In this document: positions 2,428-58,363 of the stretch, one piece after another | How positions within the stretch are numbered: position 1 is the stretch's first letter | Layout of the letters: each line of letters opens with the position of its first letter | Source: a virus | DNA: 64,000 nt | IMG/VR virus record: IMGVR_UViG_3300046004_001116 | Span: 1-64,000 of that record | Direction: 5' to 3' (one strand) | Program-made: the position numbers and the translations under genes | Notes under the pieces: generated by a model | Told to the model about the DNA's origin: nothing | What the model saw: the letters and a program-made list of their open reading frames with translations, nothing else | The model's database searches: none

Positions 2428-4374
<1,947 letters not shown>

Positions 4375-6626: not shown

Positions 6627-6708
6627 TTAATAATGGAATTGCTGTTAAAGTAATTAATGTACTGTAGATGTACATGGTTACATTGTAGCAGTCATAATAT
6701 AAACACAA

Positions 6709-13791: not shown

Positions 13792-14019
13792 ATGAAATAT
13801 TACTTAGCACATAACTCAATAGATGTTTTTCATTACGGTAGTATTCATGAGGATCAAGTTTTAACATCTGGGCAACCTTATGTAGAATACTTTAATACTC
13901 TTGTTGAATTACAAGAAAGATTAATATCTTTAGGACAGGAATACACAGAGACAGAAACGGTAATTAATTTGCCGTCTGAAGAACAATCTGAAGAACCATC
14001 TGAAGATCCAAGTATATAA
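13792..14019 (+). CDS. Hypothetical protein
   Basis: ORF after the DUF285 gene. Confidence 0.55.
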   Translation: MKYYLAHNSIDVFHYGSIHEDQVLTSGQPYVEYFNTLVELQERLISLGQEYTETETVINLPSEEQSEEPSEDPSI

Positions 14020-14033
14020 CAATAAATTAAAAC

Positions 14034-14510
14034 GGGCCATTCTGGAATTGATTGGCGGAACGTTATTCTTTGACATGCAGGCAGAGTTACATGGAAACTC
14101 TATAATAACCTATGGAACTTTTAAATGGCGATAAGTCAACAATGACCTTCGAAGATGCTATGGCATTCGTTGGTGCTTCTGAGTACGCGGTAGCTGCTTA
14201 ATGAAGGCGGGTCTCAATTACCTAGGAACAGAAATTTGAACACGGGAAAAAGGGTTAATAGTACCACATGCCGATGACCAATCAGTAACCCTGAGCGAAA
14301 GCAACAGACCACGGAGAAATCCAAGGAGCGCTGTTAATTGGAAGTCACCACCTTAATGTCAGGTGTATAATATCATTGAGTTGGTTGTTTGTTCGGAACT
14401 GGGTTAACTGAACTCTCTATTTTTGAAGTACTGAATAAACTTCATAAGCCTGTGAATGAATGCATCGGATAATCCGAACAAGATGTGGGGGTCGAGTCCC
14501 ACATGGTCCA
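14034..14510 (+). ncRNA. ssrA: tmRNA
   Basis: Acceptor GGGCCAT/ATGGTCC-A with G3-U pair; tag frame 14127-14201 GDKSTMTFEDAMAFVGASEYAVAA*. Confidence 0.9.
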
Positions 14511-14518
14511 CTACTAAT

Positions 14519-14546
14519 AAAGATCTGCCAAAAGCGGATCTTTTGT
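14519..14546 (+). terminator. Intrinsic terminator after tmRNA
   Basis: aagatctgc-caaaa-gcggatcttttt. Confidence 0.7.
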
Positions 14547-14601
14547 TGTATGTTCAGTTTTCATCATATTTAGGTTGTGATATATACTCAAATACAAATA
14601 T

Positions 14602-15501
14602 ATGAAAACAACTAAAGCACAAAAACTTAGAGACTTACTAAGTAGTGATCAATTAGAATTTATCATGGAGGCCCACAGTGGGTTATCAGCAAAGATAGTT
14701 GAAGAAGCAGGGTTCAAAGGAATTTGGGCAAGCGGTTTATCAATGTCAGCTGTACATGGTGTAAGAGACAATAATGAACTTTCCTGGACTGATGTAGTGA
14801 ATGCACTTAAGTTCATGAGTAATGCAACCACAATTCCAATCCTTCTTGACGCAGATACAGGCTACGGAAGTTTTAATAACTTCGTGCAATTGCTACAGGA
14901 ACTTGTTAAGCATGATATTGGTGGAGTTGTCATTGAGGATAAAATCTTTCCTAAAACCAATTCTTTCATTAACGGAGAAAAACAACAACTTGCAGATATT
15001 GTGGAGTTCTCTAGAAAAATCACAGCAGGTAAAGATTACTTAAAATCTATAGGCCGTGAAGATTTTGTAATCTGTGCAAGATTAGAAGCATACATTACAG
15101 GTTTAGGCCACGAAGAAGCGATGAAACGTGCTATTGCATATGCTGAAGCTGGCGCTGATGCTATTCTTTGTCATAGTAAACTCGCAGATTCTTCAGAGAT
15201 TGATATCTTTATGAATGATTGGAAAAGAACTCTAGTTGGAGAAACTACTCCAATTATTATTGTTCCTACCAAATATTATAAAGTTCCAACTCAACATTTT
15301 GCTGAAACTGGTGTTTCATTAATCATTTGGGCAAATCACAACTTAAGATCTAGCATTAAGTCAATGCAAGAAACTACACAACAAATTTTTGCTGACTCAT
15401 CATTAATTAATGTAGAACAAAATGTAGCAAAACTTGAAGAAGTTTTCCGTTTACAAAATGCTGAAGCATTAGAAATTGCTGAAAAGAAATATCTTCCTTA
15501 A
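14602..15501 (+). CDS. pepM: Phosphoenolpyruvate mutase
   Basis: EDKIFPKTNS (EDKx5NS signature), LDADTGYG, IWANHNLR. Confidence 0.95.
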   Translation: MKTTKAQKLRDLLSSDQLEFIMEAHSGLSAKIVEEAGFKGIWASGLSMSAVHGVRDNNELSWTDVVNALKFMSNATTIPILLDADTGYGSFNNFVQLLQELVKHDIGGVVIEDKIFPKTNSFINGEKQQLADIVEFSRKITAGKDYLKSIGREDFVICARLEAYITGLGHEEAMKRAIAYAEAGADAILCHSKLADSSEIDIFMNDWKRTLVGETTPIIIVPTKYYKVPTQHFAETGVSLIIWANHNLRSSIKSMQETTQQIFADSSLINVEQNVAKLEEVFRLQNAEALEIAEKKYLP

Positions 15502-15510
15502 AACTTTAGA

Positions 15511-16629
15511 ATGAATACAAAACAATTTGGTGATTGGTTGCAAGAATTGGAATTTGATGTCTTTACTGGCGTTCCATGTTCTTATCTTAAGTATTTGATT
15601 AACTATGCTTATTCTGACTGCACTTATATTAATGCACCTAATGAAGGTGATGCAGTAGCAGTTGCAGCGGGTGCCTATCTTGCAGGTAAACGTCCAGTGG
15701 TTCTTTTACAAAACTCTGGATTAGGAAATCTTATTTCTCCGCTTACTTCACTTAATCATATCTTTAAGATTCCTTTTCTTGGATTTGTTTCTTTAAGAGG
15801 TGGGCCTGACGATGAACCTCAGCATGAACTGATGGGTAAGATTACTCGAGAAATGCTTCAAGTAACACAAACACCAATTGCTACATTAAGTAAAGATCTA
15901 GAAGAAGCTAAAATGCAAATCATGGCTGCTCGAGATTTTATTGATGCAAATAAAATTCCATTCTTTTTTATCGTTGAAAAGGACACGTTTGATCCCTACA
16001 AGTTATCGATAGACTCAAAGCCAAAATATTCTAAAGGTACAAGCAAAACTTACGGTAAAGGTAATGAAGAATTATCATCAAGAACCGAAGCATTAGAAGA
16101 AATAGTTAGATCACGCGGTAAAGCTGGTGTTATTGCAACTACGGGAATGACAGGCCGAGAACTATATGAAGTTGAAGATCATGAGCAACATTTATACATT
16201 GTAGGATCTATGGGTTGTACATCAGCAATAGGTTTAGGAACTGCAATGTTTAGTGATAAGCCAGTCATTGTAGTTGATGGAGACGGCGCAGCACTTATGC
16301 GTTTAAGCGGTATGCCAATGTTAGGTCACGAAAAGCCGGATAATCTTTTACATATTCTTTTAGATAATAATGAACACAATTCAACTGGTGGACAGTCTAC
16401 AATATCTGCTATTATGAACTGGCCGCTATTTGCAGAATCTATTGGGTATCAAGCAATTACGGTTAGAACGTTAAAGCAACTTAATCATGCAATTGAAGAA
16501 TGGCATATGAATCCCAGCTTGACGTTTATTTACATGAAGATTAATAACACAGTAAAAGATAACCTTGGTAGACCTAAAGTAAAACCACATCAAGTTGGTT
16601 CACGTTTTAGAAACTACATTACATCATAA
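15511..16629 (+). CDS. ppd: Phosphonopyruvate decarboxylase
   Basis: GVPCSYL, NEGDAVA, QNSGLGN, DEPQH, GSMG, DGDGAALM. Confidence 0.95.
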   Translation: MNTKQFGDWLQELEFDVFTGVPCSYLKYLINYAYSDCTYINAPNEGDAVAVAAGAYLAGKRPVVLLQNSGLGNLISPLTSLNHIFKIPFLGFVSLRGGPDDEPQHELMGKITREMLQVTQTPIATLSKDLEEAKMQIMAARDFIDANKIPFFFIVEKDTFDPYKLSIDSKPKYSKGTSKTYGKGNEELSSRTEALEEIVRSRGKAGVIATTGMTGRELYEVEDHEQHLYIVGSMGCTSAIGLGTAMFSDKPVIVVDGDGAALMRLSGMPMLGHEKPDNLLHILLDNNEHNSTGGQSTISAIMNWPLFAESIGYQAITVRTLKQLNHAIEEWHMNPSLTFIYMKINNTVKDNLGRPKVKPHQVGSRFRNYITS

Positions 16630-16632
16630 GGT

Positions 16633-17310
16633 ATGGAAAATTGGAAAAACATTTGGAACCGTAAACCAGCTAAAGATGTTTATGATCTGCAAGATCTTAT
16701 AAACGCAAATGGGTTTGACACATCAAGTTTGCTAGTCAAAAATCTAACTGACTATATTGAATCTGTAAAAACTAGAATGGGAATGAAGCAAGGTCAGTCA
16801 GTATATGAAGTTGGCTGCGGCTGTGGTTCTATTCTTTATCTTTTACAACAGATGGGTTTACAAGTTGGTGGTTCTGATTATTCTGACTCACTTATAAAGA
16901 TAGCAAAAGACTTGAACATATCTAATGATATTAAAGTAAGTGTTGCGAATGGTATTCCTGTTGAACCTAAGTATGATTATGTTATAGCAAATAGTGTGTT
17001 TCAGTATTTCCCAGATCTTAATTATGTTGAAGAAGTAGCGTGTCTTATGATGAATAAGTCTATAAGTGGTTCTATTGCAATCTTAGACATAAATGATTTA
17101 TCTAAGCAAGAACTTTATTTAAGTATTCGTCGTAAAGCAGAACCTGACTATGATGAAAAGTATAAAGACTTTCAACATCTATTTATTGACAAGCAATTTT
17201 GGATTAAATTGGGTTCTAAATTAAATTGGAAAGTTATCATAGAAGATCAAGACATACCAGAGTACAAAAATTCTAAATTTAGATACAACATATTTATAAC
17301 AAAAGCATGA
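16633..17310 (+). CDS. Class I SAM-dependent methyltransferase
   Basis: VYEVGCGCG, NSVFQYFP. Confidence 0.85.
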   Translation: MENWKNIWNRKPAKDVYDLQDLINANGFDTSSLLVKNLTDYIESVKTRMGMKQGQSVYEVGCGCGSILYLLQQMGLQVGGSDYSDSLIKIAKDLNISNDIKVSVANGIPVEPKYDYVIANSVFQYFPDLNYVEEVACLMMNKSISGSIAILDINDLSKQELYLSIRRKAEPDYDEKYKDFQHLFIDKQFWIKLGSKLNWKVIIEDQDIPEYKNSKFRYNIFITKA

Positions 17311-18035
17311 ACACAGCAATAATTTTAGCGGCAGGTTTAGGAAGCCGTTTTGGTGATATTACAAAGTACGTTCCTAAAGGAATGATTAAAGTAGGGAAGC
17401 AACCTATGATCCAATCCTCAATTGAAGCTATTCTTGAATTAGGATATGATGAGATCATAATTGTAACAGGACACTGTTCTAGTGTTTATGAAGAGTTTTG
17501 TAAAAAGTGGGGCAATGTAAAGATTGTAAAGAATCCTTTCTATTCAACAACTGGAAGTCTATTCTCACTTTACATGGGGCTAATTGAAGCAAAAATGTAT
17601 TACCCACCGGTGAATATTACAATTTTTGAGTCGGATATTATTTATGATAAGAATATCTTAGTAGATATGAAAGCTGAAAACTGTATGGTGGTTTCTGCAC
17701 CAAGAGCTGCAGGTTTAGGTGATGAATGCTGGACTCAAATTGAAGACGGAGTAATTACCAAGATTACTAAAGACAAGAATGATTGTGCAAATCCTGAATA
17801 TGAAATGGTTGGAATTACTAACATTACATTAAGTACAGTGAGCACATTGGCAAATTTAGAAAAAATGATTAAACTTTCTATTGACATGCTATATGAAAAC
17901 AATCAACAGGATTATGAATCCTTATTCACAGAAATGAATATCTTTAAGCCGTATGTAACTACTAAGTTATGGGCAGAGATGGACAACATCAAACATTTAG
18001 AAGATGCAATAACCAAAGTATTACCTAACATATGA
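17307..18035 (+). CDS. Phosphonate/phosphocholine cytidylyltransferase (PntC/LicC-like)
   Basis: ILAAGLGSRF...PKGM; ESDIIY; WAEMD; operon context. Confidence 0.8.
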   Translation: MNTAIILAAGLGSRFGDITKYVPKGMIKVGKQPMIQSSIEAILELGYDEIIIVTGHCSSVYEEFCKKWGNVKIVKNPFYSTTGSLFSLYMGLIEAKMYYPPVNITIFESDIIYDKNILVDMKAENCMVVSAPRAAGLGDECWTQIEDGVITKITKDKNDCANPEYEMVGITNITLSTVSTLANLEKMIKLSIDMLYENNQQDYESLFTEMNIFKPYVTTKLWAEMDNIKHLEDAITKVLPNI

Positions 18036-19111
18036 AAAGAAACATTTTATTAAACCCTGGGCCAGCATGTACATCAGACGCAGTAAAACAAGCTGTACTT
18101 GATATTGGTGATGTTTGTCCTAGAGAAATAGAATTTGGCACTCTTATGAAGAATGCGTCTGAAAAGATTAAAACTCACTTAACATCGGATACTGATGAAT
18201 ATGAAGCTGTTCTTTTTACTACTTCAGGAACTGGCGCAATGGAATCTATTATAAGTTCATTACCTAAAGAAACCGACCGAGTTTTAAACATTGTGAATGG
18301 CGAGTACGGAAAACGTATTGGAGAAATGCTTGAGGTTTACGGAATAAGAAATAGCACATTGGATTTTGGTTATGATGCAATTGATTTAGACGTAATTGAA
18401 AAAGTATTGCAATCTGTGGAGTTTTCTCATATCTGTGTAGTTCATTGCGAAACTACCACTGGTGTAATTAACGATATAGAAAAGCTTGCGCAAATTGCTG
18501 CTAAGAAAAATGTTAAAGTGATTGTTGATGCTATGAGTTCTGCTTTTGCATATCCTATTAACATGAAGAAATGGGGAATTGATTTTCTTGCTTGCAGTTC
18601 AAACAAGTTAGTTCAAGGATTAGCTGGAATTGGAATTGTGGTTGGTTCTAAAAAACAAATCCAACGTTGCCACAAAAGAAACTTGTATCTTTCATTAAAA
18701 GACCAAGCTGATTACTTTAATAAAAGCAATCAAATGAGGTTTACTCCACCTGTTCAAATACTGAATGCTTTAGACGTGGCACTTGATGAATTAGCTGAAG
18801 AAGGATTGGCAAAACGTTACAAAAGATATGAAAAGCTAAATCTTTATATACGTAAGAAAATGGAAGCGTGTGGGTTCACTCCAGTTATTCCATTAAATGA
18901 ATCATCAATTATAATTACTGCATATCATGAGCCAGCTGGTTTTGATTTTGAAAACTTCCATTCTTATATGAAAGAAAGAGGTTTTATTGTTTATCCAGGA
19001 AAACTCACAGATGGCAAAAGTTTTAGAATTGCTAACATTGGCAATATAACATTAGATGATGTATATGAATTTTTAACATTAGTTAAAGATTATATGAAAA
19101 ACACAATCTAA
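18032..19111 (+). CDS. phnW: 2-aminoethylphosphonate aminotransferase (AepZ/PhnW family)
   Basis: LLNPGP, VHCETTTG, DAMSS, SSNKLVQG, RFTPP, VYPGK, FRIANIG. Confidence 0.9.
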   Translation: MKRNILLNPGPACTSDAVKQAVLDIGDVCPREIEFGTLMKNASEKIKTHLTSDTDEYEAVLFTTSGTGAMESIISSLPKETDRVLNIVNGEYGKRIGEMLEVYGIRNSTLDFGYDAIDLDVIEKVLQSVEFSHICVVHCETTTGVINDIEKLAQIAAKKNVKVIVDAMSSAFAYPINMKKWGIDFLACSSNKLVQGLAGIGIVVGSKKQIQRCHKRNLYLSLKDQADYFNKSNQMRFTPPVQILNALDVALDELAEEGLAKRYKRYEKLNLYIRKKMEACGFTPVIPLNESSIIITAYHEPAGFDFENFHSYMKERGFIVYPGKLTDGKSFRIANIGNITLDDVYEFLTLVKDYMKNTI

Positions 19112-19234
19112 GATTGAGTGATATATACTCAAAATAAACCAACTATAACATTTTATCATATTTAAGAATATTAAATTTCTTTAATATGAAAGAGTATATA
19201 TAGATTAGGAAATAATAAAAGTACTTTACCGACA

Positions 19235-21100
19235 ATGAATAATAACAATGTATTAATGATCCTTGAGCGTTCAGGGTCTAATCTTGAGGTTAACAAGTCA
19301 AACAACGAATATGTTCTTGAAGGGATATTCGCTCAGTTTGGTGTTGAGAACAATAATCATCGTATCTACGAAGAAAAGGAATATCTTCCACACTTGGACT
19401 ACTTAAAGAAAAAGATTTCAGAGAACCGCCTTTTGGGTGAACTTGACCACCCAGATAAGTTTGATATTTCATTATCAAAAGTAAGTCACCTTATTGAAGA
19501 TGTTAAGTATGATCCAAAGAAACGTCAGATCATCGGCCGTATTAAATTACTTGATACACCAAGTGGACAAATTGCTAAGAACCTTGTAGATACAGGTGTT
19601 CCAATTTCAATTTCTTCACGTGCTGCTGGAGTAGTTGGAGAAAATAAGAAAGTTCAAATTAAAAGAATCTTTACTTATGATCTTGTAGCTGATCCTGGGT
19701 TTGAAAACGCACAGATGAAAAAAATTAACGAAAGTTTCGGATTCAGCAATGAAGATGATACTGTTGCTATTTACGACATGGGTGCAGAATTTCCTTCTTT
19801 CTTAGAAGCTGTTAATACAGAAGAGATATATACTGAAACCGCAGAAAAAACTGAACCAAAAATGGAAAAAAACGACATAGTTTCTGTAGAAGAAATGAAC
19901 AAGTATTCGGTAGTGATTAAAAATGAAATTGAGAAAATCAATTCACGTTTAGATAAAATTGCTGAATCATCTGATAAAGACGAGAAAATTGCATCTCTTA
20001 CTGAAGAACTTGATAATCTTCGTAAATATACAAACTATCTTGCTGAATCACAAAACAAAGCAATCTCTCATCAAAACTACATTGCAGAGAATTTAGGTAA
20101 TTCAATTGCATATGCTGAGCAAATTGCTGAGAAAGCAGACCAAGGTTTACAATACTTAGAGCATGTTGCTGAAAAGGCTGATCGTGGTATTCAGTATTCT
20201 GAATTAATCGCTGAGAACCAAACAAACTCTAACAAGTATGTAAACGAGCACATTGCTGCTAAACTTGACGAGGCTATCCGTTACGGAGAATATCTTGCAG
20301 GTAAAATTAATGAAACTGTTGCTTATGCACAATACGTTGCTGAACACACAGACAACAGTATCAAATATGGTGAGTATCTTTCAGAGAATGCTACATCTAA
20401 GGAAGACTTCAAAAATCTAACAGAATACGCTGAGTATATGTTTGAAAACTTTGGAGCTAAACCAGACGGTAAATCTCAAGATATTACTGAAGAAACAAAA
20501 ACAAACAAAGGTATCATCGCCAACGCAATCGTTGAAGGTGAATCTATCAAGTCTCGTTATACGTTACTTGATGAAAAAATAGAAGCGGTATTGGAATCTG
20601 TTCAAAAACAAAAAACAGATGATAAATCTAATAACGCTGATTATCCATTCCTAACATTTTTGGGCGAAAGCAAACGCGACGAATTCATCGCCCTAAATGA
20701 GACCGAAAAGAAAAGGGTCGCTAAAGCTCTCGATGCTAAACCATCGTTCAATGAAGCAAATATTGTAGCGGTTTGGGAATCTGCTCTACAAAACGTTGAA
20801 GTAAACGAAGAATGGCTAACTAACATGCCAGCAGAATATTTTCCTTTATGGGAAAATGCATCAGCTGAAGTTAGAGACCGTATCGCTCGTCAATCTCGCG
20901 TATTTAGATTAGACAGCCCTTACCAAATCAAAAACTTTTGGCAAACACGTGGTTTAGGTAAACCAGAGGATTTCGTAGCAGAAAGTTTAAACGAATCAAA
21001 AAGAACTGAAACTGCTGTTGTAAAACAAACAGTATTAGGTTACGATAATGATTATGTAGACGCTATGAAAGCTAAACTAGGTAAATCGTTTAGTCGCTAA
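19235..21100 (+). CDS. Prohead protease (gp21-like) fused to scaffold-like region
   Basis: LGELDHP, ISSRAAG, YDLVADPG; 14-aa YxEYxAE repeats. Confidence 0.9.
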   Translation: MNNNNVLMILERSGSNLEVNKSNNEYVLEGIFAQFGVENNNHRIYEEKEYLPHLDYLKKKISENRLLGELDHPDKFDISLSKVSHLIEDVKYDPKKRQIIGRIKLLDTPSGQIAKNLVDTGVPISISSRAAGVVGENKKVQIKRIFTYDLVADPGFENAQMKKINESFGFSNEDDTVAIYDMGAEFPSFLEAVNTEEIYTETAEKTEPKMEKNDIVSVEEMNKYSVVIKNEIEKINSRLDKIAESSDKDEKIASLTEELDNLRKYTNYLAESQNKAISHQNYIAENLGNSIAYAEQIAEKADQGLQYLEHVAEKADRGIQYSELIAENQTNSNKYVNEHIAAKLDEAIRYGEYLAGKINETVAYAQYVAEHTDNSIKYGEYLSENATSKEDFKNLTEYAEYMFENFGAKPDGKSQDITEETKTNKGIIANAIVEGESIKSRYTLLDEKIEAVLESVQKQKTDDKSNNADYPFLTFLGESKRDEFIALNETEKKRVAKALDAKPSFNEANIVAVWESALQNVEVNEEWLTNMPAEYFPLWENASAEVRDRIARQSRVFRLDSPYQIKNFWQTRGLGKPEDFVAESLNESKRTETAVVKQTVLGYDNDYVDAMKAKLGKSFSR

Positions 21101-21128
21101 TAAACAAAGCAAAAAAAACAAAATTCAA

Positions 21129-25515: not shown

Positions 25516-25971
25516 ATGGACTTTAAAATGTTTGAAGAAACCGCTGGTGAAGTAACTACGGTTTACGTAAGAGAACCACAAGGAATGCTAAGAAAATCTG
25601 CAGCTGTAAAAATCTGGGATAAAATTGGCGTTGGTAAATCTGGAGACGGATTTGGTGTCTATGCTATTGCAGATATTGCAGATAATGAGTTAATAGAGGA
25701 ATGCTCGGTTATAGAAATGACCCGAGATGAATTTAATAGCAAGGTATTAATGGATTATATGTTTAAAATTTCCGGTGATCTATATGTACTTGCATTAGGG
25801 AACGGATCTATCTATAACCATAGAAACCAACCAAACGCACGTTGGGAATACGACGGAGAAAAGAAAATACTTAAAATAGTTGCTACTCGTCCTATTGAAA
25901 TGGGTGAAGAACTGTTTATATCATACGGTAGAGATTACTTCAAAACTCGTGAAACAAATATGAAAGCATAA
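25516..25971 (+). CDS. SET-domain protein lysine methyltransferase
   Basis: GFGVYA, YNHRNQPNA, GEELFISYG. Confidence 0.85.
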   Translation: MDFKMFEETAGEVTTVYVREPQGMLRKSAAVKIWDKIGVGKSGDGFGVYAIADIADNELIEECSVIEMTRDEFNSKVLMDYMFKISGDLYVLALGNGSIYNHRNQPNARWEYDGEKKILKIVATRPIEMGEELFISYGRDYFKTRETNMKA

Positions 25972-30715: not shown

Positions 30716-30790
30716 ACGAGATTAGCTCAGTTGGTTCAGAGCAACTCTTTTACACGGAGAAGGTCACAGGTTCGAATCCTGTATCTCGTA
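30716..30790 (+). tRNA. trnV: tRNA-Val(TAC)
   Basis: Cloverleaf, loop TTTACAC. Confidence 0.9.
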
Positions 30791-30993: not shown

Positions 30994-31067
30994 GCTGCTA
31001 TAGACGAATTGGTTAAGTCGTCGCCCTTTCAAGGCGGAGGTTGCGGGTTCAAGTCCCGTTGGCAGTA
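30994..31067 (+). tRNA. trnE: tRNA-Glu(TTC)
   Basis: Cloverleaf, loop CTTTCAA. Confidence 0.9.
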
Positions 31068-47410: not shown

Positions 47411-47935
47411 ATGAGCAAAACGTATATCATTACTGATACACACTTTAATGGGAATGTTTACAGCAATCCCAACTACACACAAACTATTTTTAACTATTGG
47501 TCTACTATCGTTGGTCCAGATGATACTATCATTCATGGCGGTGATGTTTGCTCGGGTTCTTGGAATAAGGTATCTGAACAAATTGCTTCAATGCCTGGAA
47601 AGAAAATCCTTGTCCGAGGAAATCATGACGGTGCTAAAGATGAAAAGTATCTTGAAGCATTTGATGAAGTCTATTCAACATATGTTGACACAGAGAATGA
47701 TGTAGTTTATTCTCACTACCCAGTAGATGCAGAGATATATAATTGTAAATATAACATCTTTGGACACTTCCATAAGTACCCCCAGAATATGAAAGACAGT
47801 CTTGTACGCAGGTACAAAGGTTTCTTTGATTTTAATCGTAACTTTACTTACTGTATTGTGGATTGGGAATACAAACCTGTAGAAGTTCAGGTGTTTCTTA
47901 AAAAATGTATAGATCATGCCAAATTTTGTGTTTAG
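47411..47935 (+). CDS. Metallophosphoesterase
   Basis: TDTH, GGD, GNHD, SHYP, GHFH. Confidence 0.85.
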   Translation: MSKTYIITDTHFNGNVYSNPNYTQTIFNYWSTIVGPDDTIIHGGDVCSGSWNKVSEQIASMPGKKILVRGNHDGAKDEKYLEAFDEVYSTYVDTENDVVYSHYPVDAEIYNCKYNIFGHFHKYPQNMKDSLVRRYKGFFDFNRNFTYCIVDWEYKPVEVQVFLKKCIDHAKFCV

Positions 47936-48683
47936 CTTTCAAGAGTTCTTAACAGAGAACGAAGTATTTGAAGGAACCAATAGAGTAGATAAAAGACTAT
48001 CTGACGAAGTACAAGAAGAGTACAACAAATTAAAAATCGAATCTTTAAAGAAACAAATTGACTTGTGTAAAAAACATAAAGTTAAGTGCTTTATAGATTA
48101 TGGTTCACTATTAGGTTTATACCGAGACAAAAAACTTATCAAGCACGATAACGATACTGATGTTGCTATCTTTGGTGAAACAGTAACAAAAGAATTTCTT
48201 GAAGATGTAGAGAAAGAATTTGTTTTACAACGTCCAACAAAAATGAGTGCTTTAATTAATAAGTTATTTGTAAGTGATGAAAATGCTGATGATTATCACC
48301 AGATTCCTTACGTAGGTCTTGCGCTTAAAGGTAAAGATGGTAAAGAAATTCAGGTTACCGCAATGTCTAAAAAGAAAATTGGCGTTCCTGGAGATTTCTT
48401 TTTCTATTATCCATACGGTGATGGGAAACGTATTACAAGATATCCAGGATGGGAAGTTCAATTAACTGATGCAAAGCATTTTGATAAACTTGGAACTTTA
48501 AAACATGATGGGTATGATTTTCCAATTCCTGGAGATCCTGAAGTCTATTTAGAATATCTTTATGGTAAAGATTGGAAAACACCAAAGTCAAATTCAGGTC
48601 TAAACGATGATTGCGAATTTATATCCAGAGCAAAAGGTAAAGCATACTGCTATTCCCATAAAGAAGGTAAGTACAAGAAGTAA
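47916..48683 (+). CDS. LicD-family phospho-transferase
   Basis: YGSLLGLYRD..LIKHDNDTDV; PEVYLEYLYGKDWKTP. Confidence 0.85.
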   Translation: MPNFVFSFQEFLTENEVFEGTNRVDKRLSDEVQEEYNKLKIESLKKQIDLCKKHKVKCFIDYGSLLGLYRDKKLIKHDNDTDVAIFGETVTKEFLEDVEKEFVLQRPTKMSALINKLFVSDENADDYHQIPYVGLALKGKDGKEIQVTAMSKKKIGVPGDFFFYYPYGDGKRITRYPGWEVQLTDAKHFDKLGTLKHDGYDFPIPGDPEVYLEYLYGKDWKTPKSNSGLNDDCEFISRAKGKAYCYSHKEGKYKK

Positions 48684-48810: not shown

Positions 48811-49203
48811 ATGATACATACATTTATTATTGATGTTGACGATACCATTTTAACCACGCCTCTCAAAGAAGATGGAAAGTATGATTATGATAATTCTCAG
48901 CCTATTCCACTAACCATTGAGAGGATTCGTAGTCTTAAAAAGGATGGTCATAGCATCATATTGTTTACAGCTCGCGGTATGAAAACATTTGCCGGAGATG
49001 TTAAAAAGATTAAGAAAGAACATGAAGATCGTTTACTTAATTGGCTTAAAGTCAATGACTGTCCTTACGATTCTATTATCTTTGGTAAACCTTGGGGTCC
49101 TAATCCTGTTTACGTAGATAATCGTAATTTATCTTTACATGCATTTGCTACAAGTGCTCCAGAATTTTTTGAACCAATCATCCTAGTCGAAAATAAACTA
49201 TGA
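48811..49203 (+). CDS. HAD phosphatase (capsule-biosynthesis EcbF/BcbF type)
   Basis: DVDDTI, FTARGM, FGKP, YVDNR. Confidence 0.8.
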   Translation: MIHTFIIDVDDTILTTPLKEDGKYDYDNSQPIPLTIERIRSLKKDGHSIILFTARGMKTFAGDVKKIKKEHEDRLLNWLKVNDCPYDSIIFGKPWGPNPVYVDNRNLSLHAFATSAPEFFEPIILVENKL

Positions 49204-50792
49204 CATCAGTAATTATTCCAGCCGCTGGTTTAGCCAGTAGAATGAAACCTCTTTCACGAGGTGTAAGTAAAGCAATGATCCCAGTTAACGGTCGTCCGTT
49301 AATTTCATATATCATTGAAACCCTACTTAAAGATTATCCAACTAGAGAAATCGTAATCGTTGAGAATGAACTTGGCGATATTAAAGAATTTGTTAACCGA
49401 GTCTATAATACTTCCAATATTAAAACTGTTGTTCAAGAGGAAAAACTTGGACCGCTGCATGCAATATCTTTAGGTCATAATGCCTTGGAGAATAAAGAAT
49501 CTGGTGTAACAGTTTGGTTAGGTGATACTATCTGTCTTGATGAATTTCCCTTTCATAAAGATTTCTTAGCAGTTCAATCTGTTGAAGATCCTCATCGTTG
49601 GTGTCTTGTAGACCAAGACGGTAAACTGTATGATAAACCTGATACTGCAGTTCCTACAGATTTAGCATTAATTGGTGTGTATAACTTTGCTAATCGTAAA
49701 GCATTTGATACTTCTATGAAAGTAGGCATGAAAAAACCAACACATAAAGGTGAGTACCAAATTGCTGCTCTATTAGAAAACTATATCTTAAGCTATAAAA
49801 TGCAACTTGTAGGTACTAATGAATGGTATGATTGTGGCGAACTTAATACTTATTACGAATCTAAAGCAAAATTGCTTCAAAGAACTGCCAGATCATTTAA
49901 CAAGATCAAGGTAGATACATTCTATAATATCATTTCTAAATCTAGTGATTCTCCGGAAAAGCAAAGAAAGATACAAGATGAAAAAGAATGGTTCTTAGCT
50001 CTAGATCCTTGGGCATCACAATTCATTCCAAGAATACTTCCGTCTGAGGTTGGTGAGTTATCAATGTCATTGGAACCGGGTATTGCTTTAAACGAAATTA
50101 TTGTGTATGATAATTTAAGAACAGATATTTGGCATGATATTATACGTAAGATTGTAAACATTCATCATGGTGTCTTTAAAAGACCTTCTAAAATATCAGA
50201 AGATCGCATGAAAGAAGAATGCTTCCGTGCTTATGTTCTAAAAAATGTAAACCGTCTTGACGGCATGAAGGATACTATTATTACTTCTCAAGATAAGTTT
50301 CAGATGGTTAGAGATTTCGTTGAGCAAACTGGCTACATGTTATGTTCAGATCCTCATCCATACTGGTCACAAATCATGCATGGTGATTCTCATTTAGGAA
50401 ATCTTATTTATGATCCACACTCAGGTTCTATTAAATTTGTTGATCCTCGAGGTTCATTTGGTAATCTTAAAGGTACTGAAGGCGACATGCGATATGATAT
50501 GGCAAAATTAATGCAAGATTTTTACTGCGGGTACAGTATGATTATGGCAGATCGTTATATCTTATTTGGAGAAACTTGTTCTATTGACTGGGTTCCTGGA
50601 ACGGAAAACTTATCAGCTATGCTTGAAGAGCAACTTGTAGAAAACTTTTACGATGTAAACTTACTTAAACGATTGGCAATTGTTTTATTAATCACAGCAA
50701 TTCCTTTTCATACTGATGATAAAAATCGACAAGAAGCATTTTGGTTAAGAGGTATTGAACTAATCGAGGCTATAAAAGACGGAGATAAATAA
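49200..50792 (+). CDS. Sugar nucleotidyltransferase fused to APH/choline-kinase-like domain
   Basis: IPAAGLASRM..SKAM; WYDCG; HGDSHLGN..FVDPRG..YDMAKL. Confidence 0.85.
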   Translation: MTSVIIPAAGLASRMKPLSRGVSKAMIPVNGRPLISYIIETLLKDYPTREIVIVENELGDIKEFVNRVYNTSNIKTVVQEEKLGPLHAISLGHNALENKESGVTVWLGDTICLDEFPFHKDFLAVQSVEDPHRWCLVDQDGKLYDKPDTAVPTDLALIGVYNFANRKAFDTSMKVGMKKPTHKGEYQIAALLENYILSYKMQLVGTNEWYDCGELNTYYESKAKLLQRTARSFNKIKVDTFYNIISKSSDSPEKQRKIQDEKEWFLALDPWASQFIPRILPSEVGELSMSLEPGIALNEIIVYDNLRTDIWHDIIRKIVNIHHGVFKRPSKISEDRMKEECFRAYVLKNVNRLDGMKDTIITSQDKFQMVRDFVEQTGYMLCSDPHPYWSQIMHGDSHLGNLIYDPHSGSIKFVDPRGSFGNLKGTEGDMRYDMAKLMQDFYCGYSMIMADRYILFGETCSIDWVPGTENLSAMLEEQLVENFYDVNLLKRLAIVLLITAIPFHTDDKNRQEAFWLRGIELIEAIKDGDK

Positions 50793-50806: not shown

Positions 50807-52222
50807 ATGGCGCTATTTATAAAAACGCATGATCGTCCTTTAACAGGAAAACCTAAAGCAATGTTATTCTTTCCTCGTGACTTCGAGAAAATGGAATACA
50901 TTATGGGATTCGGTATTCCTGTTTTAGAATACCTAAGCGAACACTACGATCCAATCATAATCACGGGTTCTAACAGTGACACTACACACTTTAAAAAGTA
51001 CGGACAAGTTTGGGGTTTCTCAATTGCACATCTTTTAAAGCTGAAAGAGTTCTCAATGAAACGCGCTGATGAAATGGAAGGCGATGACACAAACTGGGAA
51101 TACAACCGAGACATTGTCACAGCTGAACTTGAACTATCATTTGGTAAAGAATTCTTTCAAGATCTTACCAAAATCTTTATGATAGATCCTATTGATTTTA
51201 TCTTACCACAAACTTCATACGTTCCTAAGAAATCTAGTGAACTTCTTTGTGAAAGAAAAAATGAATTTCATGATACGGTAAACGCAGATCTTCATGAACT
51301 TGCTACAATTACTGACTATAATAAAAAGACTGCTGAAAAGTATTATTCTCGTGCTTCGGTCTTAGCTTTTGGTAGTCACAACAAAAACATCAGTATGTCA
51401 TTAATTGACTGGAGTGTTAAACAAGCAAGTAATTTTGAGTGTGCTTATGGATTTATTAATGATCCTGCTTTTTACTATCCTATCTTTGAGCTTTGGGGTA
51501 TTCCGTTTAAAGCACTTTACTTTGCTGATGATAATCGAGGTACTCGTGATTTCCATGAATTTCCAATTGGCGAACTTCAACATATAGTATGGGACAGCCG
51601 CAAAAAAGTAAAAGATCTTCTTTCTTTTGATGAACCAGTGAAACAAGATAAAGATTTCTTTTTTGCTGGAACTATCTTTCAAGAAAAAGGTGGCCGAGTT
51701 GAGCTATATGAAAGATACTTAAAAGATTTAAGACTTCCTAACTCGGATCTGTTTATTCCACAAAGAGCAAACGGTATTGTTTACTCTAAAGATAACAATG
51801 ACAGATTTGTAAATAAACTTACAGATAAGTTTGCTGAACTGCATGCAAATGTTTTAGCTCATCCTATGTATGCTAATCATATTGTTCCTGCTGAATATGA
51901 AGATACTGTTAAGCACTACAAGTACGGAATGTTATTACGTTGTGTATCTTATTATGATTCTTTAAACTTCAGACCTATACTATATGCAAGATTAGGAATA
52001 CTTCCTTTCATAGATCCTCAATATGATCCGCTTGGATTACAAATTCCACTAGACATACAAGAGCACTTGGTTGTTCAAGATGCTGCGGATATTGAGAAAA
52101 AAGTTGCATATTTTAATGCAAATCCTGCACACAGACAAGAACTATTAAGTAAACTTGAATATAAATTTAAGGTTAAAACATTCAACAAGGAATGGAAAAC
52201 CATCTTATCTCAATACATATAA
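50807..52222 (+). CDS. Putative GT-B glycosyltransferase (phage DNA glucosyltransferase-like)
   Basis: FFFAGTI...R, NFRP...LPFIDPQYD; similar C-terminal layout to the next gene. Confidence 0.55.
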   Translation: MALFIKTHDRPLTGKPKAMLFFPRDFEKMEYIMGFGIPVLEYLSEHYDPIIITGSNSDTTHFKKYGQVWGFSIAHLLKLKEFSMKRADEMEGDDTNWEYNRDIVTAELELSFGKEFFQDLTKIFMIDPIDFILPQTSYVPKKSSELLCERKNEFHDTVNADLHELATITDYNKKTAEKYYSRASVLAFGSHNKNISMSLIDWSVKQASNFECAYGFINDPAFYYPIFELWGIPFKALYFADDNRGTRDFHEFPIGELQHIVWDSRKKVKDLLSFDEPVKQDKDFFFAGTIFQEKGGRVELYERYLKDLRLPNSDLFIPQRANGIVYSKDNNDRFVNKLTDKFAELHANVLAHPMYANHIVPAEYEDTVKHYKYGMLLRCVSYYDSLNFRPILYARLGILPFIDPQYDPLGLQIPLDIQEHLVVQDAADIEKKVAYFNANPAHRQELLSKLEYKFKVKTFNKEWKTILSQYI

Positions 52223-52225: not shown

Positions 52226-53620
52226 ATGAAAACAGAAAATTTAACAGTTGCAGTTTATCCTATTGGATCTTCAATGAAGTTCAGTAAGGAAAAACTTAAA
52301 AGATCTGATGGATCATCTGAGTATTTTAAATTAATCTGGGCGCTTGTTCGTAACGAATCCATTAGTTCAGTTTGGTTAGTTCAGCGTAGTGATTGGAAAC
52401 GTTTATCTTTTGAAGAAAAGGCAGAAATTGACCCAAGAGGTGTTCTGCGTGATATTCATTCAGAATTTGCCGTTGAACTACCACCTGGTAGACGTCAAGG
52501 TCCTGATGGAAATCTTATTCCTCATACAAAAGAAGAACAAGAAAAATACATGGATCTTTGGAACAAAGTAAAAGATCTTCCACAACCTGACTTTGGGTTT
52601 GGATTTGCTTCACAAGGATTAACTATGGTAAATATTCCTGGAATAGTGCCAAGTATTAAAGATCCTTCAAGAATGACAGGTGCATTGGATATGACTCTTA
52701 TTTATGGAGCTCCACTTGTACACTACTTAAATATGTCAAACATCCCTTGGTTTATGATTATGACGGATCCTCGTTACATCAAGAAAAACCAAAAATGGCG
52801 TGATATGGTTAACGGTCCTAGAGAATGTATTGCACAATACAATTCTGACATTAACTTTACTCACTTTGACACTTACCCTGATTTAACAAGTGGAAACGAA
52901 ATCACTGAGAAACTTATTCTTACGTACTCCGGTATTGAGAAAATGAATCTTATTGGTGAAACTGTTGTACCACCTGATACTGAGCGTGATGTTAAATTCT
53001 CAATCGTTGCAATGCAATCTGCTTATGGTAAAACTACAACTGTAGATTATCGTTTAGAAGCATTAAAGAAATGGATCTTAACTCAACCTAATTCTAAAGA
53101 TTGTGAAATCTTTGGTAAATGGGACGAGCGCTTCATTAAACAATACCCACAGTTTAAAGGTTATAAGGCTCCCGAGGAAATTGATGAAATCTTTAAAAGA
53201 ACTCGATACACACTTATCATACCTATTCGTCCTGACTGGGTTACAAGTAAATATGCAGAAATGCTTCGCGTAGGTGTACTTCCTTTTTATCACCCTGATT
53301 ACGATACACAATTTTCAACTATTCCTAAAGATCATTATCTTAGAGTAAAAACTCCTAAAGAAATGTTTGATAAGATTGAAGATCTTGAAGCAAATCCAGA
53401 GAAACGAATTGCTTTGGTTAAACAATTACAATTAATGTTCTTACGGGGTGTTCGTCAAGGTTCGTTTATTGCTGATGTGGTTAATCCTTTCTTAGAGCGT
53501 GCAGGTGTTCCTGTCGTTGTAGGTAAAGGCTATTCTGATGAATTACTTCGTACACCACAAATGTCAGATTATAATAAACCAACTAAAGCACCGGTGATTA
53601 ATTCTGCAGCATTATTTTAG
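52226..53620 (+). CDS. Putative GT-B glycosyltransferase (beta-glucosyltransferase-like)
   Basis: MTDPRY, IFGKW, TSKYAEM..GVLPFYHPDYD. Confidence 0.6.
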   Translation: MKTENLTVAVYPIGSSMKFSKEKLKRSDGSSEYFKLIWALVRNESISSVWLVQRSDWKRLSFEEKAEIDPRGVLRDIHSEFAVELPPGRRQGPDGNLIPHTKEEQEKYMDLWNKVKDLPQPDFGFGFASQGLTMVNIPGIVPSIKDPSRMTGALDMTLIYGAPLVHYLNMSNIPWFMIMTDPRYIKKNQKWRDMVNGPRECIAQYNSDINFTHFDTYPDLTSGNEITEKLILTYSGIEKMNLIGETVVPPDTERDVKFSIVAMQSAYGKTTTVDYRLEALKKWILTQPNSKDCEIFGKWDERFIKQYPQFKGYKAPEEIDEIFKRTRYTLIIPIRPDWVTSKYAEMLRVGVLPFYHPDYDTQFSTIPKDHYLRVKTPKEMFDKIEDLEANPEKRIALVKQLQLMFLRGVRQGSFIADVVNPFLERAGVPVVVGKGYSDELLRTPQMSDYNKPTKAPVINSAALF

Positions 53621-53621: not shown

Positions 53622-54359
53622 ATGAAAGATTATTCAAAATTTTGGGATGCGGTCTACGTAATCAATCTTGATTTTAGACAAGACCGCTGGGAAAGCATAC
53701 AGGCAAAAGCAGCGGTCATAGGATTACCTATAGAACGCTGGAATGCTGTTAAAGCAACTGATGTTAATTTAGAAAAGGACCGAGTTGGAATCCGAGTGAA
53801 AAAGACTTCATGTGTTGCTTGCGCTTTATCACATTATGGAATTTATCGTGATGCACTATCTAAAGGATATGATAACATACTTGTTCTTGAAGACGACGCT
53901 GATCTTCCTCTTGACTTATATGAACAAGTGGATAATATGTTTAACACAAATGAATATTACTTAAAGAATTATGATCTTATCTATTTAGGATGTGCTGACA
54001 AATATCCAAATGTTTCTTTAACAGAAAATTTAGCATTATCACAATTTACATTACTTACGCATGCACTTCTATTTTCTAAAAGAGGTATGGAAAAAGTAAT
54101 AGAAATCATTGATACTCAAGATGACGGTAAATGTCGTATGAGTGTTGATGTATTCCTTGCAGAAAGATTACAACCGCTAAATAAAACTTTTCAAGCGGTT
54201 CCTTCAATTATAACAACTATTACAAGCACATCAGATATCGCAGGTTGGAAAAGAACTTGGAGCTCTATGCTATCTGACTGCAAACATCAAGGATTAAAGA
54301 ATCCGAAAAAATGGGAATCTTTTGAGAAAAGAGCCAAATCAATAAAACAATACTTATAA
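53622..54359 (+). CDS. Glycosyltransferase family 25
   Basis: YVINLDFRQDR, CALSH, LVLEDDA. Confidence 0.85.
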   Translation: MKDYSKFWDAVYVINLDFRQDRWESIQAKAAVIGLPIERWNAVKATDVNLEKDRVGIRVKKTSCVACALSHYGIYRDALSKGYDNILVLEDDADLPLDLYEQVDNMFNTNEYYLKNYDLIYLGCADKYPNVSLTENLALSQFTLLTHALLFSKRGMEKVIEIIDTQDDGKCRMSVDVFLAERLQPLNKTFQAVPSIITTITSTSDIAGWKRTWSSMLSDCKHQGLKNPKKWESFEKRAKSIKQYL

Positions 54360-56942: not shown

Positions 56943-57512
56943 ATGAAACTATTAATCATAGAAGGCACAGATCGTTGTGGCAAAGATACTCTTATAGAAT
57001 CTATAGCTCGCGAATATAAGCATGTCATCAAACGTCATTGGGGCTATCCTTTAGGTGAAACCAATGAAGATAAAACAGCGTATCAAAAAGATTCTTTTAA
57101 CTGGGAATTTAAGTTGCACAACATCTTACAAACTGCAAGTAATGAAGTTGATAAAAACTCCATCATAATTTGGAATCGTTCTCACATTGGAGAATTGGTT
57201 TACGGAACTATTTACAGAGATAGCCAGCCTGAAACGTGGGTAATGGATCTTGAAAGAAAATACTGTTTTGATCAAGCTGATAACATTTACTTGGTTTATT
57301 TACACGCAGATCCAGAGTTTGTTGTAAAACAAGATGATGGCAAATCATATTCAGCAAATCTTAAAGATAAACAGACTGAACTATCAAAATTCAATAGTGC
57401 TTGTAACCGATCTACTATCCGTAAAAAACTTTTTGTAAAAGTAAATGAAAACGGAGAATATAAAAGTCAACAAGATATCCTTAACTCAGTATTTACATTT
57501 ATTAACGACTAA
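56943..57512 (+). CDS. dNMP (thymidylate-like) kinase
   Basis: IEGTDRCGKDT P-loop; NRSHIGELVYG. Confidence 0.8.
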   Translation: MKLLIIEGTDRCGKDTLIESIAREYKHVIKRHWGYPLGETNEDKTAYQKDSFNWEFKLHNILQTASNEVDKNSIIIWNRSHIGELVYGTIYRDSQPETWVMDLERKYCFDQADNIYLVYLHADPEFVVKQDDGKSYSANLKDKQTELSKFNSACNRSTIRKKLFVKVNENGEYKSQQDILNSVFTFIND

Positions 57513-57514: not shown

Positions 57515-58363
57515 ATGCAGCATTCTTTAAATTCAGAATTTCACAAACTAATTAACAAGATAGAAAATCAAGGTTTCTTATCACAGCCTAGAGGATTAAA
57601 AGTTAAAGAATTAGAAATGGAAAGGTTAACGATTAACCCAACCATGCCTTTAGCTGATTTTGATGCTCGTCCTTTTAACTGGAAGTATTTCATGGGTGAG
57701 ATGGCTTGGTATTTAAAACAAGATAGAAATGTTGATTACATTAATAACTTTTCATCTTTTTGGAAAAACATTGCTGATGAAGAAGGCAACATACATTCAA
57801 ACTACGGGCATTTACTTTTTGGAAAACAAATTCAATGGGCACTTGACTCATTAAAGAAAGACATTAACACAAGACAAGGAATTGCTTTTATCAGTAACCC
57901 AGGCGTGCAATATCCTGGTAATAAAGATTTTGTTTGCACAATTTATCTTAACTTTTGGGTAAGAAACAATAAGTTAAATATGAAAGTTCAGATGCGCTCA
58001 AATGATATCTTTTACGGATTAACTTTTGATGCACCATTCTTTGCGTTTGTGCAACAAACAATGCATCAGTGGTTATTAGAATCGTATCCTGACTTAACAT
58101 TAGGTACTTATTATCATTGTGCAGATAACATTCACTTTTATGAAAGACACTTTGAGCTTGCTCAAGAAATCATAAAAGAACCAATTAAAAATCCAAACTT
58201 CTTTTTACTTAAAACTCCGTTATTTGTTATGAAAGATAACATTATGGTATTAACTGTAGCAGGTATTAAGTTCTTAAATGAAGTTGAAGAACTAATTCAA
58301 AACAAACCTATAACACAAGAACAATCTAAAGCTGTTCTAAACAATTATTTTTACATTCAATAA
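57515..58363 (+). CDS. dCMP hydroxymethylase-like thymidylate synthase homologue
   Basis: DFVCT catalytic Cys; MRSNDIFYGLTFD with Asp at the Asn177 specificity position; HFYERH. Confidence 0.8.
   Translation: MQHSLNSEFHKLINKIENQGFLSQPRGLKVKELEMERLTINPTMPLADFDARPFNWKYFMGEMAWYLKQDRNVDYINNFSSFWKNIADEEGNIHSNYGHLLFGKQIQWALDSLKKDINTRQGIAFISNPGVQYPGNKDFVCTIYLNFWVRNNKLNMKVQMRSNDIFYGLTFDAPFFAFVQQTMHQWLLESYPDLTLGTYYHCADNIHFYERHFELAQEIIKEPIKNPNFFLLKTPLFVMKDNIMVLTVAGIKFLNEVEELIQNKPITQEQSKAVLNNYFYIQ

Follow-up and report, generated by a model that had tools for sequence, protein, structure and literature searches.

A conserved phage gene cassette predicted to make and activate 2-aminoethylphosphonate, with a LicD-family protein as candidate transferase

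We analyzed the first 64 kb (64,000 nucleotides, the window) of the 85,919-base IMG/VR virus record IMGVR_UViG_3300046004_001116 (CheckV completeness 30%), which is almost wholly co-directional on the plus strand (translation table 11) and in which a sequence-only reading had pointed to five tightly coupled genes for the synthesis and activation of 2-aminoethylphosphonate (AEP). The five open reading frames (ORFs) are present on the plus strand, separated by 9 nt and 3 nt and then by two 4-nt overlaps, and their families fit those proposed. The first gene, pepM (14602..15501), encodes a phosphoenolpyruvate (PEP) mutase (PepM or Ppm) matching PF13714 (181 bits) and TIGR02320 (344.2 bits, cut-off 319.55), for which the closest solved structure is the mussel PEP mutase 1m1b (E 9e-106); the protein carries the EDKX5NS signature within I-E-D-K-I-F-P-K-T-N-S, with E112, D113, K114, N120 and S121 invariant in an alignment of 22 sequences. 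Starting 9 nt past pepM, ppd (15511..16629) encodes a phosphonopyruvate decarboxylase (Ppd) that matches TIGR03297 (355.5 bits, cut-off 312.5) and has both thiamine pyrophosphate domains. The third gene (16633..17310) encodes a methyltransferase (MT) for which the family models give only class-I S-adenosylmethionine (SAM) methyltransferase domains, and which is a candidate AEP N-methyltransferase.

The remaining two genes encode a PntC-type phosphonate cytidylyltransferase (PntC, 17307..18035) and a 2-aminoethylphosphonate transaminase (AEPT, 18032..19111). The closest solved structure to the former, a protein with a MobA-like or NTP transferase domain, is the PntC domain of Treponema denticola Tde1415 (6pd1, E 9.4e-30), and the alignment extends over the full length (residues 3-242 on 4-238). 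In this alignment we found G-L-G-S-R followed after eight residues by P-K, which fits GXG(T/S)RX4-8PK, given as the PntC signature in the available text of Rice et al. (PMC6697681). AEPT is a class-V aminotransferase whose best-scoring models are all AEP transaminases and whose SNK lysine is aligned in structure-sequence matches; its solved relatives are the AEPT domain of Tde1415 (6pd1, E 1.1e-75), 9kk8 and 1m32 (E 8.6e-57). Weighing against the AEPT assignment, the match to TIGR03301 (348.7 bits) is 12 bits short of the cut-off of 360.8, and that to NF010006 (293 bits) is slightly below the cut-off of 296. Since Tde1415 is the closest solved relative of both proteins, the phage PntC and AEPT genes are a split form of the Tde1415 fusion.

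Every family assignment is consistent with the pathway originally proposed, in which PepM, Ppd and AEPT lead to AEP and PntC to CMP-AEP. PepM would convert PEP to phosphonopyruvate, and Ppd would decarboxylate this product to phosphonoacetaldehyde, drawing the PepM reaction forward; AEPT would then aminate the aldehyde to AEP, which PntC would join to CMP. MT may place methyl onto the AEP amino group, giving a phosphocholine-like head group with a C-P bond, and a LicD-family protein encoded elsewhere in the window would move the phosphonyl head group from CMP to a sugar hydroxyl of a phage-built glycan. We consider it likely that these five genes work as a phage version of the phosphonyl-tailoring route of bacteria, with LicD transferring the head group; we infer all of the chemistry, the methylation site and the timing from the genes themselves.

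Consistent with the earlier placement of the operon directly before protease and capsid genes, it is followed on the plus strand by a head maturation protease gene (19235-21100; Peptidase_S77 and PHROG matches) and a gp23-type major capsid gene (21129-23012; gp23 family). The capsid protein is closest to those of an uncultured 462-kb phage (42.6%) and the Prevotella Lak megaphages (38-39%), and the carrier, judged by sequence, is a Lak-related megaphage, a large uncultured bacteriophage of lakes. A sister lineage of the Lak phages, made up of freshwater phages of 200-307 kb, was described in 2025 (PMC12619734); the accessible part of that text does not contain "phosphon", "LicD", "tmRNA" or "collagen".

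Two further observations bear on whether the cassette belongs to a phage and is biosynthetic. AEPT (PhnW) works in catabolism too, and PepM is very rare in deposited phages: a tblastn search of 50,697 records gave four matches, none close, namely two unannotated fragments (6.6 and 8.2 kb, 32-36% identity) and two prpB genes. These points would suit genes for phosphonate breakdown or phosphorus scavenging, or a host fragment misjoined to phage DNA, readings that we regard as extremely improbable given the evidence on the other side. PepM and Ppd are biosynthetic, and there is no phosphonatase or C-P lyase gene in the window. The GC content of the operon (0.33-0.37) is that of the remaining window, and at least half of the words of the stretch 14000-21200, which is present in many lake-water metagenomes, are found in at least 11 of the 24 runs listed, three runs being marked as possible sources. 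In addition, an independent contig (L006, PepM 89% identical) has the same junctions on both sides of the cassette, sharing nine upstream ORFs with the window as well as the protease, capsid and following genes. Misassembly, which the sequence-only reading had named as a way in which it could fail, is excluded because L006 keeps the phage flanks on both sides, and the gene order recurs in eight related loci.

The cassette is conserved as a unit. Among metagenome contigs, we found 433 PepM relatives and examined ten loci, the nine closest and L001. Within the sequence available for each locus, eight of the ten (L005, L006, L007, L009, L010, L011, L012 and L013) have the order pepM-ppd-MT-pntC-aepT; these are all the loci extending past ppd, as L001 and L008 end within or just past pepM-ppd. 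A wider search with a threshold of E 0.001 gave 4,897 PepM relatives; the 21 nearest are 66-97% identical to the window protein, and the matches from rank 22 on are bacterial or fused forms (at most 66% identity). The PepM phylogeny suggested earlier as a check, built from 60 sequences (the window protein, the 21 nearest, 34 chosen from 99 further matches and four outgroup sequences), placed the window protein and its 21 nearest relatives, 22 sequences in all, in one clade with SH-aLRT support of 100 and a stem of 0.5 changes per site. This clade adjoins Bacillota-type PepMs, with weak support (80), and is separate from two giant-virus PepMs.

The five cassette genes are under purifying selection, as measured between the window and L006 by the ratio of nonsynonymous to synonymous substitution rates (pepM 0.165, ppd 0.072, MT 0.205, pntC 0.063, aepT 0.291), and no internal stops were found in the genes compared. 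The two phages do not resemble each other equally along the cassette: PepM, Ppd and PntC are 89-92% identical, MT 76%, and AEPT 62% (18032-19111 versus L006 13423-14499). That AEPT is 62% identical while its neighbors are 76-92% identical suggests gene exchange of AEPT inside the cassette.

We also looked for the cassette in RNA libraries. Metatranscriptome contigs at 90% identity or more, from four of four libraries belonging to four studies, cover pepM (X19, X23), ppd (X20), pntC (X20) and aepT (X20, X23), and some bridge the junctions pepM/ppd (X23, X24) and pntC/aepT (X20). These contigs are consistent with transcription of the cassette; weighing against this, they give neither strand nor transcript ends nor expression level, and carry-over of DNA is possible. 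A gap in contig cover over part of the operon in a single run carries no weight.

The candidate transferase is a LicD-family phosphotransferase encoded at 47916..48683 (+), identified by Pfam LicD (37 bits, cut-off 22.6) and a conserved motif. Across six aligned LicD sequences, five of which pass the Pfam cut-off, residues G63, L66, G67, R70, D78, D80 and D82 are invariant and form the motif G-x-L-L-G-x-x-R ... D-x-D-x-D, and their profile also matches the corresponding motif in the fukutin-related protein FKRP (6kaj, E 2.5e-6). Among NCBIfam models, the window protein scores best against the Mycoplasma cholinephosphotransferase Mf1 (67 bits, far under the cut-off). Two points count against a role for this protein in the pathway, as its Pfam match spans 35 residues only and its gene is 29 kb from the operon, inside a glycosyltransferase array. 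In six related loci (L001, L007, L008, L010, L011 and L012), by contrast, a LicD homologue is immediately upstream of pepM (tblastn E 1e-12 to 5e-19). The naming of LicD as candidate transferase is thus borne out by its adjoining pepM in the relatives, and the expected co-occurrence of the two genes appears in those six loci as adjacency and in the window as genes far apart. Because LicD lies directly upstream of pepM in the six loci, the unit in most relatives is, from gene order, best described as a six-gene operon led by LicD.

This arrangement also bears on whether the product is attached to a glycan at all. PepM-Ppd cores start many small-molecule pathways, some of them nucleotidyl-activated, as set out in the available text of Li and Horsman (2022; PMC8942020), and the operon product could in principle be a soluble phosphonate, such as an antimetabolite, or a phosphonolipid, with no glycan decoration. 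We found no CDP-alcohol phosphatidyltransferase or antibiotic-tailoring enzyme in the window or the annotated related loci, and LicD is the first operon gene in the six loci named above; a product of this kind seems very unlikely.

MT is the member of the cassette for which the substrate is hardest to assign. It is kept at the same position in all seven of the related loci that reach it, its AlphaFold2 (AF2) model has a mean predicted local distance difference test (pLDDT) score of 94.9, and model comparison confirmed the class-I fold. A search for MT proteins gave 108 relatives. We scanned species genomes with an alignment of the bacterial-type relatives and obtained 79 loci, 26 of which have a tblastn match to the window MT. 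A PntC/LicC-like nucleotidyltransferase (NTase) is encoded within 8 kb in 17 of these 26 loci. In three (L089, L092 and L101), the gene directly upstream of MT encodes an NTase fused to a CobD-like pyridoxal phosphate (PLP) enzyme, the CobD-like part scoring 169-180 bits against TIGR01140, below the cut-off; the order in L089 is NTase::CobD-like, MT, a homologue of the SbnI/SerK-like serine kinases and LicD. In L094, genes for two LicC-LicA fusions and for EutH, an ethanolamine carrier, adjoin MT, and the locus also contains a PepM fusion; in L109 MT is beside PepM, PntC, Ppd and AEPT.

N-methylation of AEP is plausible because the bacterial MT relatives sit in operons for phosphocholine-like head groups, and we lean slightly toward MT methylating the amino group of AEP, which would give a C-P analogue of phosphocholine. 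Several results weigh against this assignment. PepM is nearby in only two of the 26 bacterial loci. Foldseek with the MT model lists at least 500 class-I methyltransferases without a clear nearest family; among the matches listed, ChlM is first and the Plasmodium phosphoethanolamine methyltransferase (PfPMT) is at positions 13-15, with C-methyltransferases, including a keto-acid C-methyltransferase, at the same level. The sequence match to the plant phosphoethanolamine N-methyltransferase (PEAMT) is confined to the SAM motif region (E 2.5e-5). As for the N-methylated AEP put forward in the sequence-only reading, therefore, the bacterial gene context fits and the fold search does not tell the substrate.

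In a rival reading, plain AEP is transferred and MT has another task, which might be to O-methylate the phosphonate, to C-methylate phosphonopyruvate or to methylate the acceptor. In its favor, beside the confined PEAMT match, O- and C-methyltransferases are level with phosphoethanolamine N-methyltransferases in the Foldseek search, and the pocket of the Tde1415 PntC is too small for a trimethylammonium group, according to the available part of Rice et al. (PMC6697681). MT is nevertheless an operon member in all related loci long enough to include it, and the full-length bacterial relatives are in operons where the other genes would make and activate an aminoethyl phosphate head group. We regard transfer of plain AEP as somewhat unlikely, and the head group as probably methylated. 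The bacterial contexts would together be most simply explained by an MT acting on the amino group of aminoethyl phosphate or phosphonate head groups, a reaction for which we found no description in the literature, including the available part of PMC10434233.

The scan of bacterial genomes brought out an operon type in its own right, NTase::CobD-like followed by MT and, in one case, by the serine-kinase-like gene and LicD (L089 6188-10097, L092 6136-8714, L101 6150-8558). From its gene content, it reads as a de novo route from serine to a phosphocholine-type head group, and no description of this operon type was found in the literature. The bacterial MT relatives may in this way point to an undescribed de novo phosphocholine-type route with a serine kinase, a CobD-like decarboxylase, MT, an NTase and LicD.

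A short sequence, GATATATA, resembles a promoter element of the phage. One copy is at 14579..14586 (+), starting 23 nt before the pepM ATG. The window has ten copies, all on the plus strand, against 3.35 expected, and none of 100 shuffles reached ten (maximum 8). Copies are located 23-37 nt before the ORFs starting at 143, 2428 (the collagen-like fibre gene), 14602, 23141 and 26964; others are 115 nt before the protease gene, 182 nt before LicD within the preceding gene, and barely inside the called start of the ORF at 42563, with an ATG about 20 nt further downstream. In seven of eight related loci with upstream sequence (L001, L005, L006, L008, L010, L011 and L012, the exception being L007), GATATATA is found 23-35 nt before the first cassette gene, and it precedes LicD in five of the six loci where LicD is upstream of pepM. 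A phage promoter element common to the cassette and structural genes is a credible interpretation; calling it "late" would be an analogy with the T4 late promoter.

The position of the cassette is less conserved than its gene order. The assignment of the operon to a late head region holds for the window phage and its close relative L006 and does not hold for the other relatives, in which the cassette is between topoisomerase II subunit genes, after the tail sheath gene or among nucleotide-metabolism genes. Since the position differs among phages, neighbors are weak evidence on the target of the pathway, which counts against any reading of the acceptor from context. Homing-endonuclease genes of the HNH and GIY-YIG types are found behind GATATATA (window 143-886 and 42563-43480), and one is directly past the cassette in L011 (14655-14984). 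Homing endonucleases might contribute to the shifting position of the cassette.

To consider which glycan might be the acceptor, we turned to the genes around LicD, the third gene of a tight, co-directional array at 46548-58810. Two metallophosphoesterases, LicD, an HAD-like phosphatase and a 530-aa NTase with a kinase-like tail are followed by two GT-B-like proteins, and then by a GT25 protein, a C5-cytosine-methylase-like protein, a 235-aa protein, a methyltransferase, a dNMP-kinase-like protein and a thymidylate-synthase homologue. The phosphatase and the NTase (48811..50792, +), possibly for sugar activation, have a PHROG match to phosphoheptose isomerase or a PNK-like protein, an NTP_transferase domain with a weak ABC1 kinase-like match, and a match to rmlA_long (83 bits). 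The first GT-B-like protein (50807..52222, +) has a weak match to Glyco_trans_1_2 (E 0.003) and is a distant paralogue of the second (52226..53620, +), the two being related in their C-terminal part (BLASTP E 2e-8). The GT25-family glycosyltransferase (53622..54359, +) was assigned by Pfam Glyco_transf_25 (43 bits), and the language-model neighbors of the 235-aa protein are small viral glycosyltransferases, which offers a lead only (GT-A-like). The dNMP (thymidylate) kinase-like protein (56943..57512, +) matches PHROG_761, thymidylate kinase (E 1.3e-11), with a weak Pfam match.

The last of these genes (57515..58363, +) encodes a thymidylate-synthase homologue resembling a dCMP hydroxymethylase. 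Its closest solved relative is the T4 deoxycytidylate hydroxymethylase (1b49, E 1.1e-16), the catalytic Cys is retained, and an Asp aligns with the gp42 Asp, where entry 6l18 and thymidylate synthase have Asn. The residue at this position sets specificity for cytosine. The protein therefore resembles the hydroxymethylases by sequence, by which hydroxymethylation and methylation are indistinguishable.

The second GT-B-like protein is predicted to have the fold of T4 DNA beta-glucosyltransferase (BGT). With its AF2 model (pLDDT 87.5), the top six Foldseek matches in the PDB are all T4 BGT (E 4e-9 to 3e-8, the next match being at 8e-7), and in VIA-align the four best rows are T4 BGT (Z 19.5-20.5 over 307-315 residues, root-mean-square deviation 4.8-5.4, 14% identity), with the next chain at Z 17.3 and others near 16. 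Similarity was detected by fold only: searching the 85.9-kb record for PF09198, the T4 glucosyltransferase family, gave no sequence match at thresholds up to E 10, and a PDB profile search with the window glycosyltransferase family gave only chance matches to histones. With 159 relatives, found on contigs as long as 320 kb, the protein is by its distribution the product of a widespread core gene of the lineage. Set against only 21 other members of the PepM clade, the 159 BGT-fold relatives fit a phosphonate pathway added on to an existing DNA-glycan system.

A second phage group gives a similar picture. In L011 and L012 the background differs, with only LicD and a weak thymidylate-synthase-like match shared with window proteins. 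The order there is a thymidylate-synthase homologue, an unknown gene, a dNMP-kinase-like gene, an NAD-dependent sugar epimerase/dehydratase, a 429-aa protein, GATATATA, LicD and the five genes. The thymidylate-synthase homologues of both loci retain the Asp and the Cys. A link of the L011 429-aa protein to BGT was first suggested by its language-model neighbors and was confirmed by profile search, in which a profile of 28 homologues matched only two PDB sequences at E 10 or better, both T4 BGT (E 3.4e-8); L012 carries a homologue of this protein. By gene content, then, LicD looks to be placed twice independently among genes resembling those for T-even-type hydroxymethylcytosine glycosylation.

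On the strength of the gene context around LicD in two phage groups sharing almost nothing else, our leading reading, held tentatively, is that the acceptor is a sugar on the hydroxymethylcytosine DNA of the phage, which would be capped with phosphonate. Hydroxymethylcytosine would arise by replacement or modification of cytosine and would receive sugar from BGT-type transferases, after which LicD would add AEP or N-methyl-AEP to the DNA-bound sugar. Several points weigh against DNA as the acceptor. The window BGT-fold family and the L011 BGT homologue family are not significantly related by hhalign (E 0.14), and no relationship to BGT was found for the 279-aa product of the gene that precedes LicD in L010. 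The neighbors in L010 and L001 are topoisomerase II subunit genes and the tail sheath gene, and GATATATA is shared with structural genes. We know of no DNA modification with a phosphonate or a LicD-transferred head group. Among the three targets named in the sequence-only reading (virion glycoproteins, glycosylated DNA and the host surface), the gene context favors glycosylated DNA.

The same pathway could instead decorate glycans on virion proteins, such as capsid decoration proteins or collagen-like, PARCEL-repeat and BspA-like fibres, giving a zwitterionic, hydrolysis-resistant coat. The operon is directly before the protease and capsid genes in the window and L006; GATATATA is common to the collagen-like fibre gene (2428), the pre-protease region and the gene for a 790-aa protein that follows the capsid gene; L011, L012 and L013 also have collagen-like genes close to the cassette; and the window encodes GT25 and GT2 enzymes and several surface-repeat proteins. 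We nonetheless find a virion acceptor doubtful, as the placement of the cassette beside head genes is not conserved, no glycosyltransferase gene adjoins the structural genes, LicD is in the array with BGT-like and dCMP-hydroxymethylase-like genes away from the structural genes, and GATATATA also precedes homing-endonuclease genes.

Transfer of the head group onto host envelope glycans (lipopolysaccharide, capsule or teichoic-acid-like polymers), perhaps to keep other phages from adsorbing or progeny from binding to debris, is a third possibility. All characterized LicD enzymes act on cell-surface glycans, as do the bacterial Pnt clusters in the available text of Rice et al. (2019; PMC6697681), and the Mycoplasma cholinephosphotransferase that is the best NCBIfam match of the window LicD acts on a glycolipid. 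No membrane transferase, flippase or polyprenyl-linked step was found near the cassette in the annotated loci, GATATATA is shared with virion genes, and expression late in infection, if the timing is as supposed, would leave little time for envelope remodeling, making an envelope acceptor quite improbable. Some acceptor other than a DNA sugar, a virion glycoprotein or fibre, or a host envelope glycan is unlikely too, if less so.

Parts of the proposed pathway have counterparts in bacteria and viruses. The Pnt pathway (T. denticola Tde1413-1415 and Atopobium rimae PntC), in the available description by Rice et al. (2019; PMC6697681), likewise has Ppm, Ppd, AEPT and PntC leading to CMP-AEP, with a LicD-like transferase nearby. 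The phage copy differs in being carried by a tailed megaphage, in having PntC and AEPT as separate genes with a 4-nt overlap rather than fused, in its fixed MT, and in having DNA-modification-like and structural genes as neighbors and not cell-wall loci. The Lic-1 pathway (LicA, LicC and LicD of Streptococcus pneumoniae and Haemophilus influenzae) also passes a CMP- or CDP-activated zwitterionic head group to sugar via LicD, and PntC is related to LicC (1jyk, E 2.7e-13); in contrast to imported choline, the phage head group would be built from PEP with a C-P bond, and any methyl groups would come from a soluble methyltransferase. We thus describe the cassette, from its genes, as a known bacterial pathway that here has a new carrier and, in MT, a new fixed member.

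For the DNA side, T4-type glucosylation of hydroxymethylcytosine is matched in the window by a dCMP-hydroxymethylase-like protein with the cytosine-type Asp, a dNMP-kinase-like protein, a BGT-like protein and further glycosyltransferases, with the difference from T4 that the BGT-like protein is similar by fold only. The HAD-APH, cytidylyltransferase and GT-B set of phage DNA-glycan clusters resembles the sugar-activation set of the window, and the available part of the preprint describing these clusters (10.1101/2023.12.21.572611) does not contain "LicD", "phosphon" or "phosphocholine".

Among viruses, a PepM-Ppd-AEPT core beside sugar genes has been described in a giant-virus (nucleocytoplasmic large DNA virus) bin, in the part of Li and Horsman (2022; PMC8942020) available to us. 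The carrier in that case is a giant virus of eukaryotes in which Ppm and Ppd are fused, and its PepM (L003/L004, 51% identical) is outside the phage clade. The same text reports Ppm in none of 364 huge-phage genomes surveyed and viral Ppm only in one giant-virus bin. In a broader IMG/VR scan we obtained 12 PepM loci; the other 11 (L166-L176, 33-54% identical) include two giant-virus contigs, have Ppd adjoining in nine and AEPT beside Ppd in two, with a weak AEPT-like match in one more, and in none has the MT-PntC-LicD layout. PHROGs gave no family for PepM, Ppd or MT at E 1e-6, and we found no paper on phosphonate biosynthesis in a tailed phage among main texts, supplements apart. In PMC10987575, phnW appears solely as a phosphorus-acquisition gene.

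Collectively, these data support a real, intact and conserved cassette that would produce activated AEP, with LicD as its probable transferase. A phage lineage in which such a cassette is conserved, selected and apparently expressed would build an activated phosphonate, and viruses would contribute to the C-P chemistry of lakes; phosphonates are commonly regarded as cellular products. The C-P head group would then have a use in the phage life cycle. Should DNA be the target, the product would be the first nucleic acid known to bear a phosphonate. It would represent a new class of modification and a further layer of DNA hypermodification, would matter for restriction, CRISPR evasion and sequencing bias, and would probably be an accessory step in an arms race with host nucleases recognizing glycosylated DNA. 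A virion target would mean a particle coat of a new kind. As the enzymes are small and soluble, both readings can be tested without phage culture.

Several other features of the window were noted. Just upstream of the operon is a transfer-messenger RNA (tmRNA)-like gene (14034-14511, +), in which the 5' GGGCCAT pairs with the 3' ATGGTCC, with G-U at the third pair, and a T-arm is present. Its reading frame, near 14166-14201, ends in ...Y-A-V-A-A-stop, and a terminator hairpin follows at 14519-14543. Default ARAGORN missed this gene, as did Rfam (13900-14700, E up to 1); ARAGORN at a lowered threshold picks it up with a different tag call. Its 3' end is kept in L005 and L006, and the region has the deepest contig cover in the RNA libraries, with relatives contributing in part. 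ARAGORN found 32 tRNA genes, an array of 31 (30716-37838, +) and a tRNA-Met (46079-46152, +), and Rfam gave 32 matches; three further candidates are from Rfam only (31075-31147, 31823-31908 and 36504-36577).

Probable virion surface or adhesin proteins are encoded by a short second gp23-like gene (1512-2372) and by genes for a collagen-repeat tail-fibre-like protein (2428-4374, 648 aa), a DUF285/PARCEL-repeat protein (10972-13773, 933 aa), a BspA-type leucine-rich repeat protein (29116-29811) and a protein with a Fib_succ_major domain (44717-45460). We also noted an RNA-repair-like set (5813-7299, 40890-42512, 59250-59693 and 25516-25971), which comprises two HAD_SAK_2 "Swiss army knife" domains and a Ro/TROVE-like RNA-binding protein, together with a cyclic-phosphate-processing receiver domain and a SET-domain protein.

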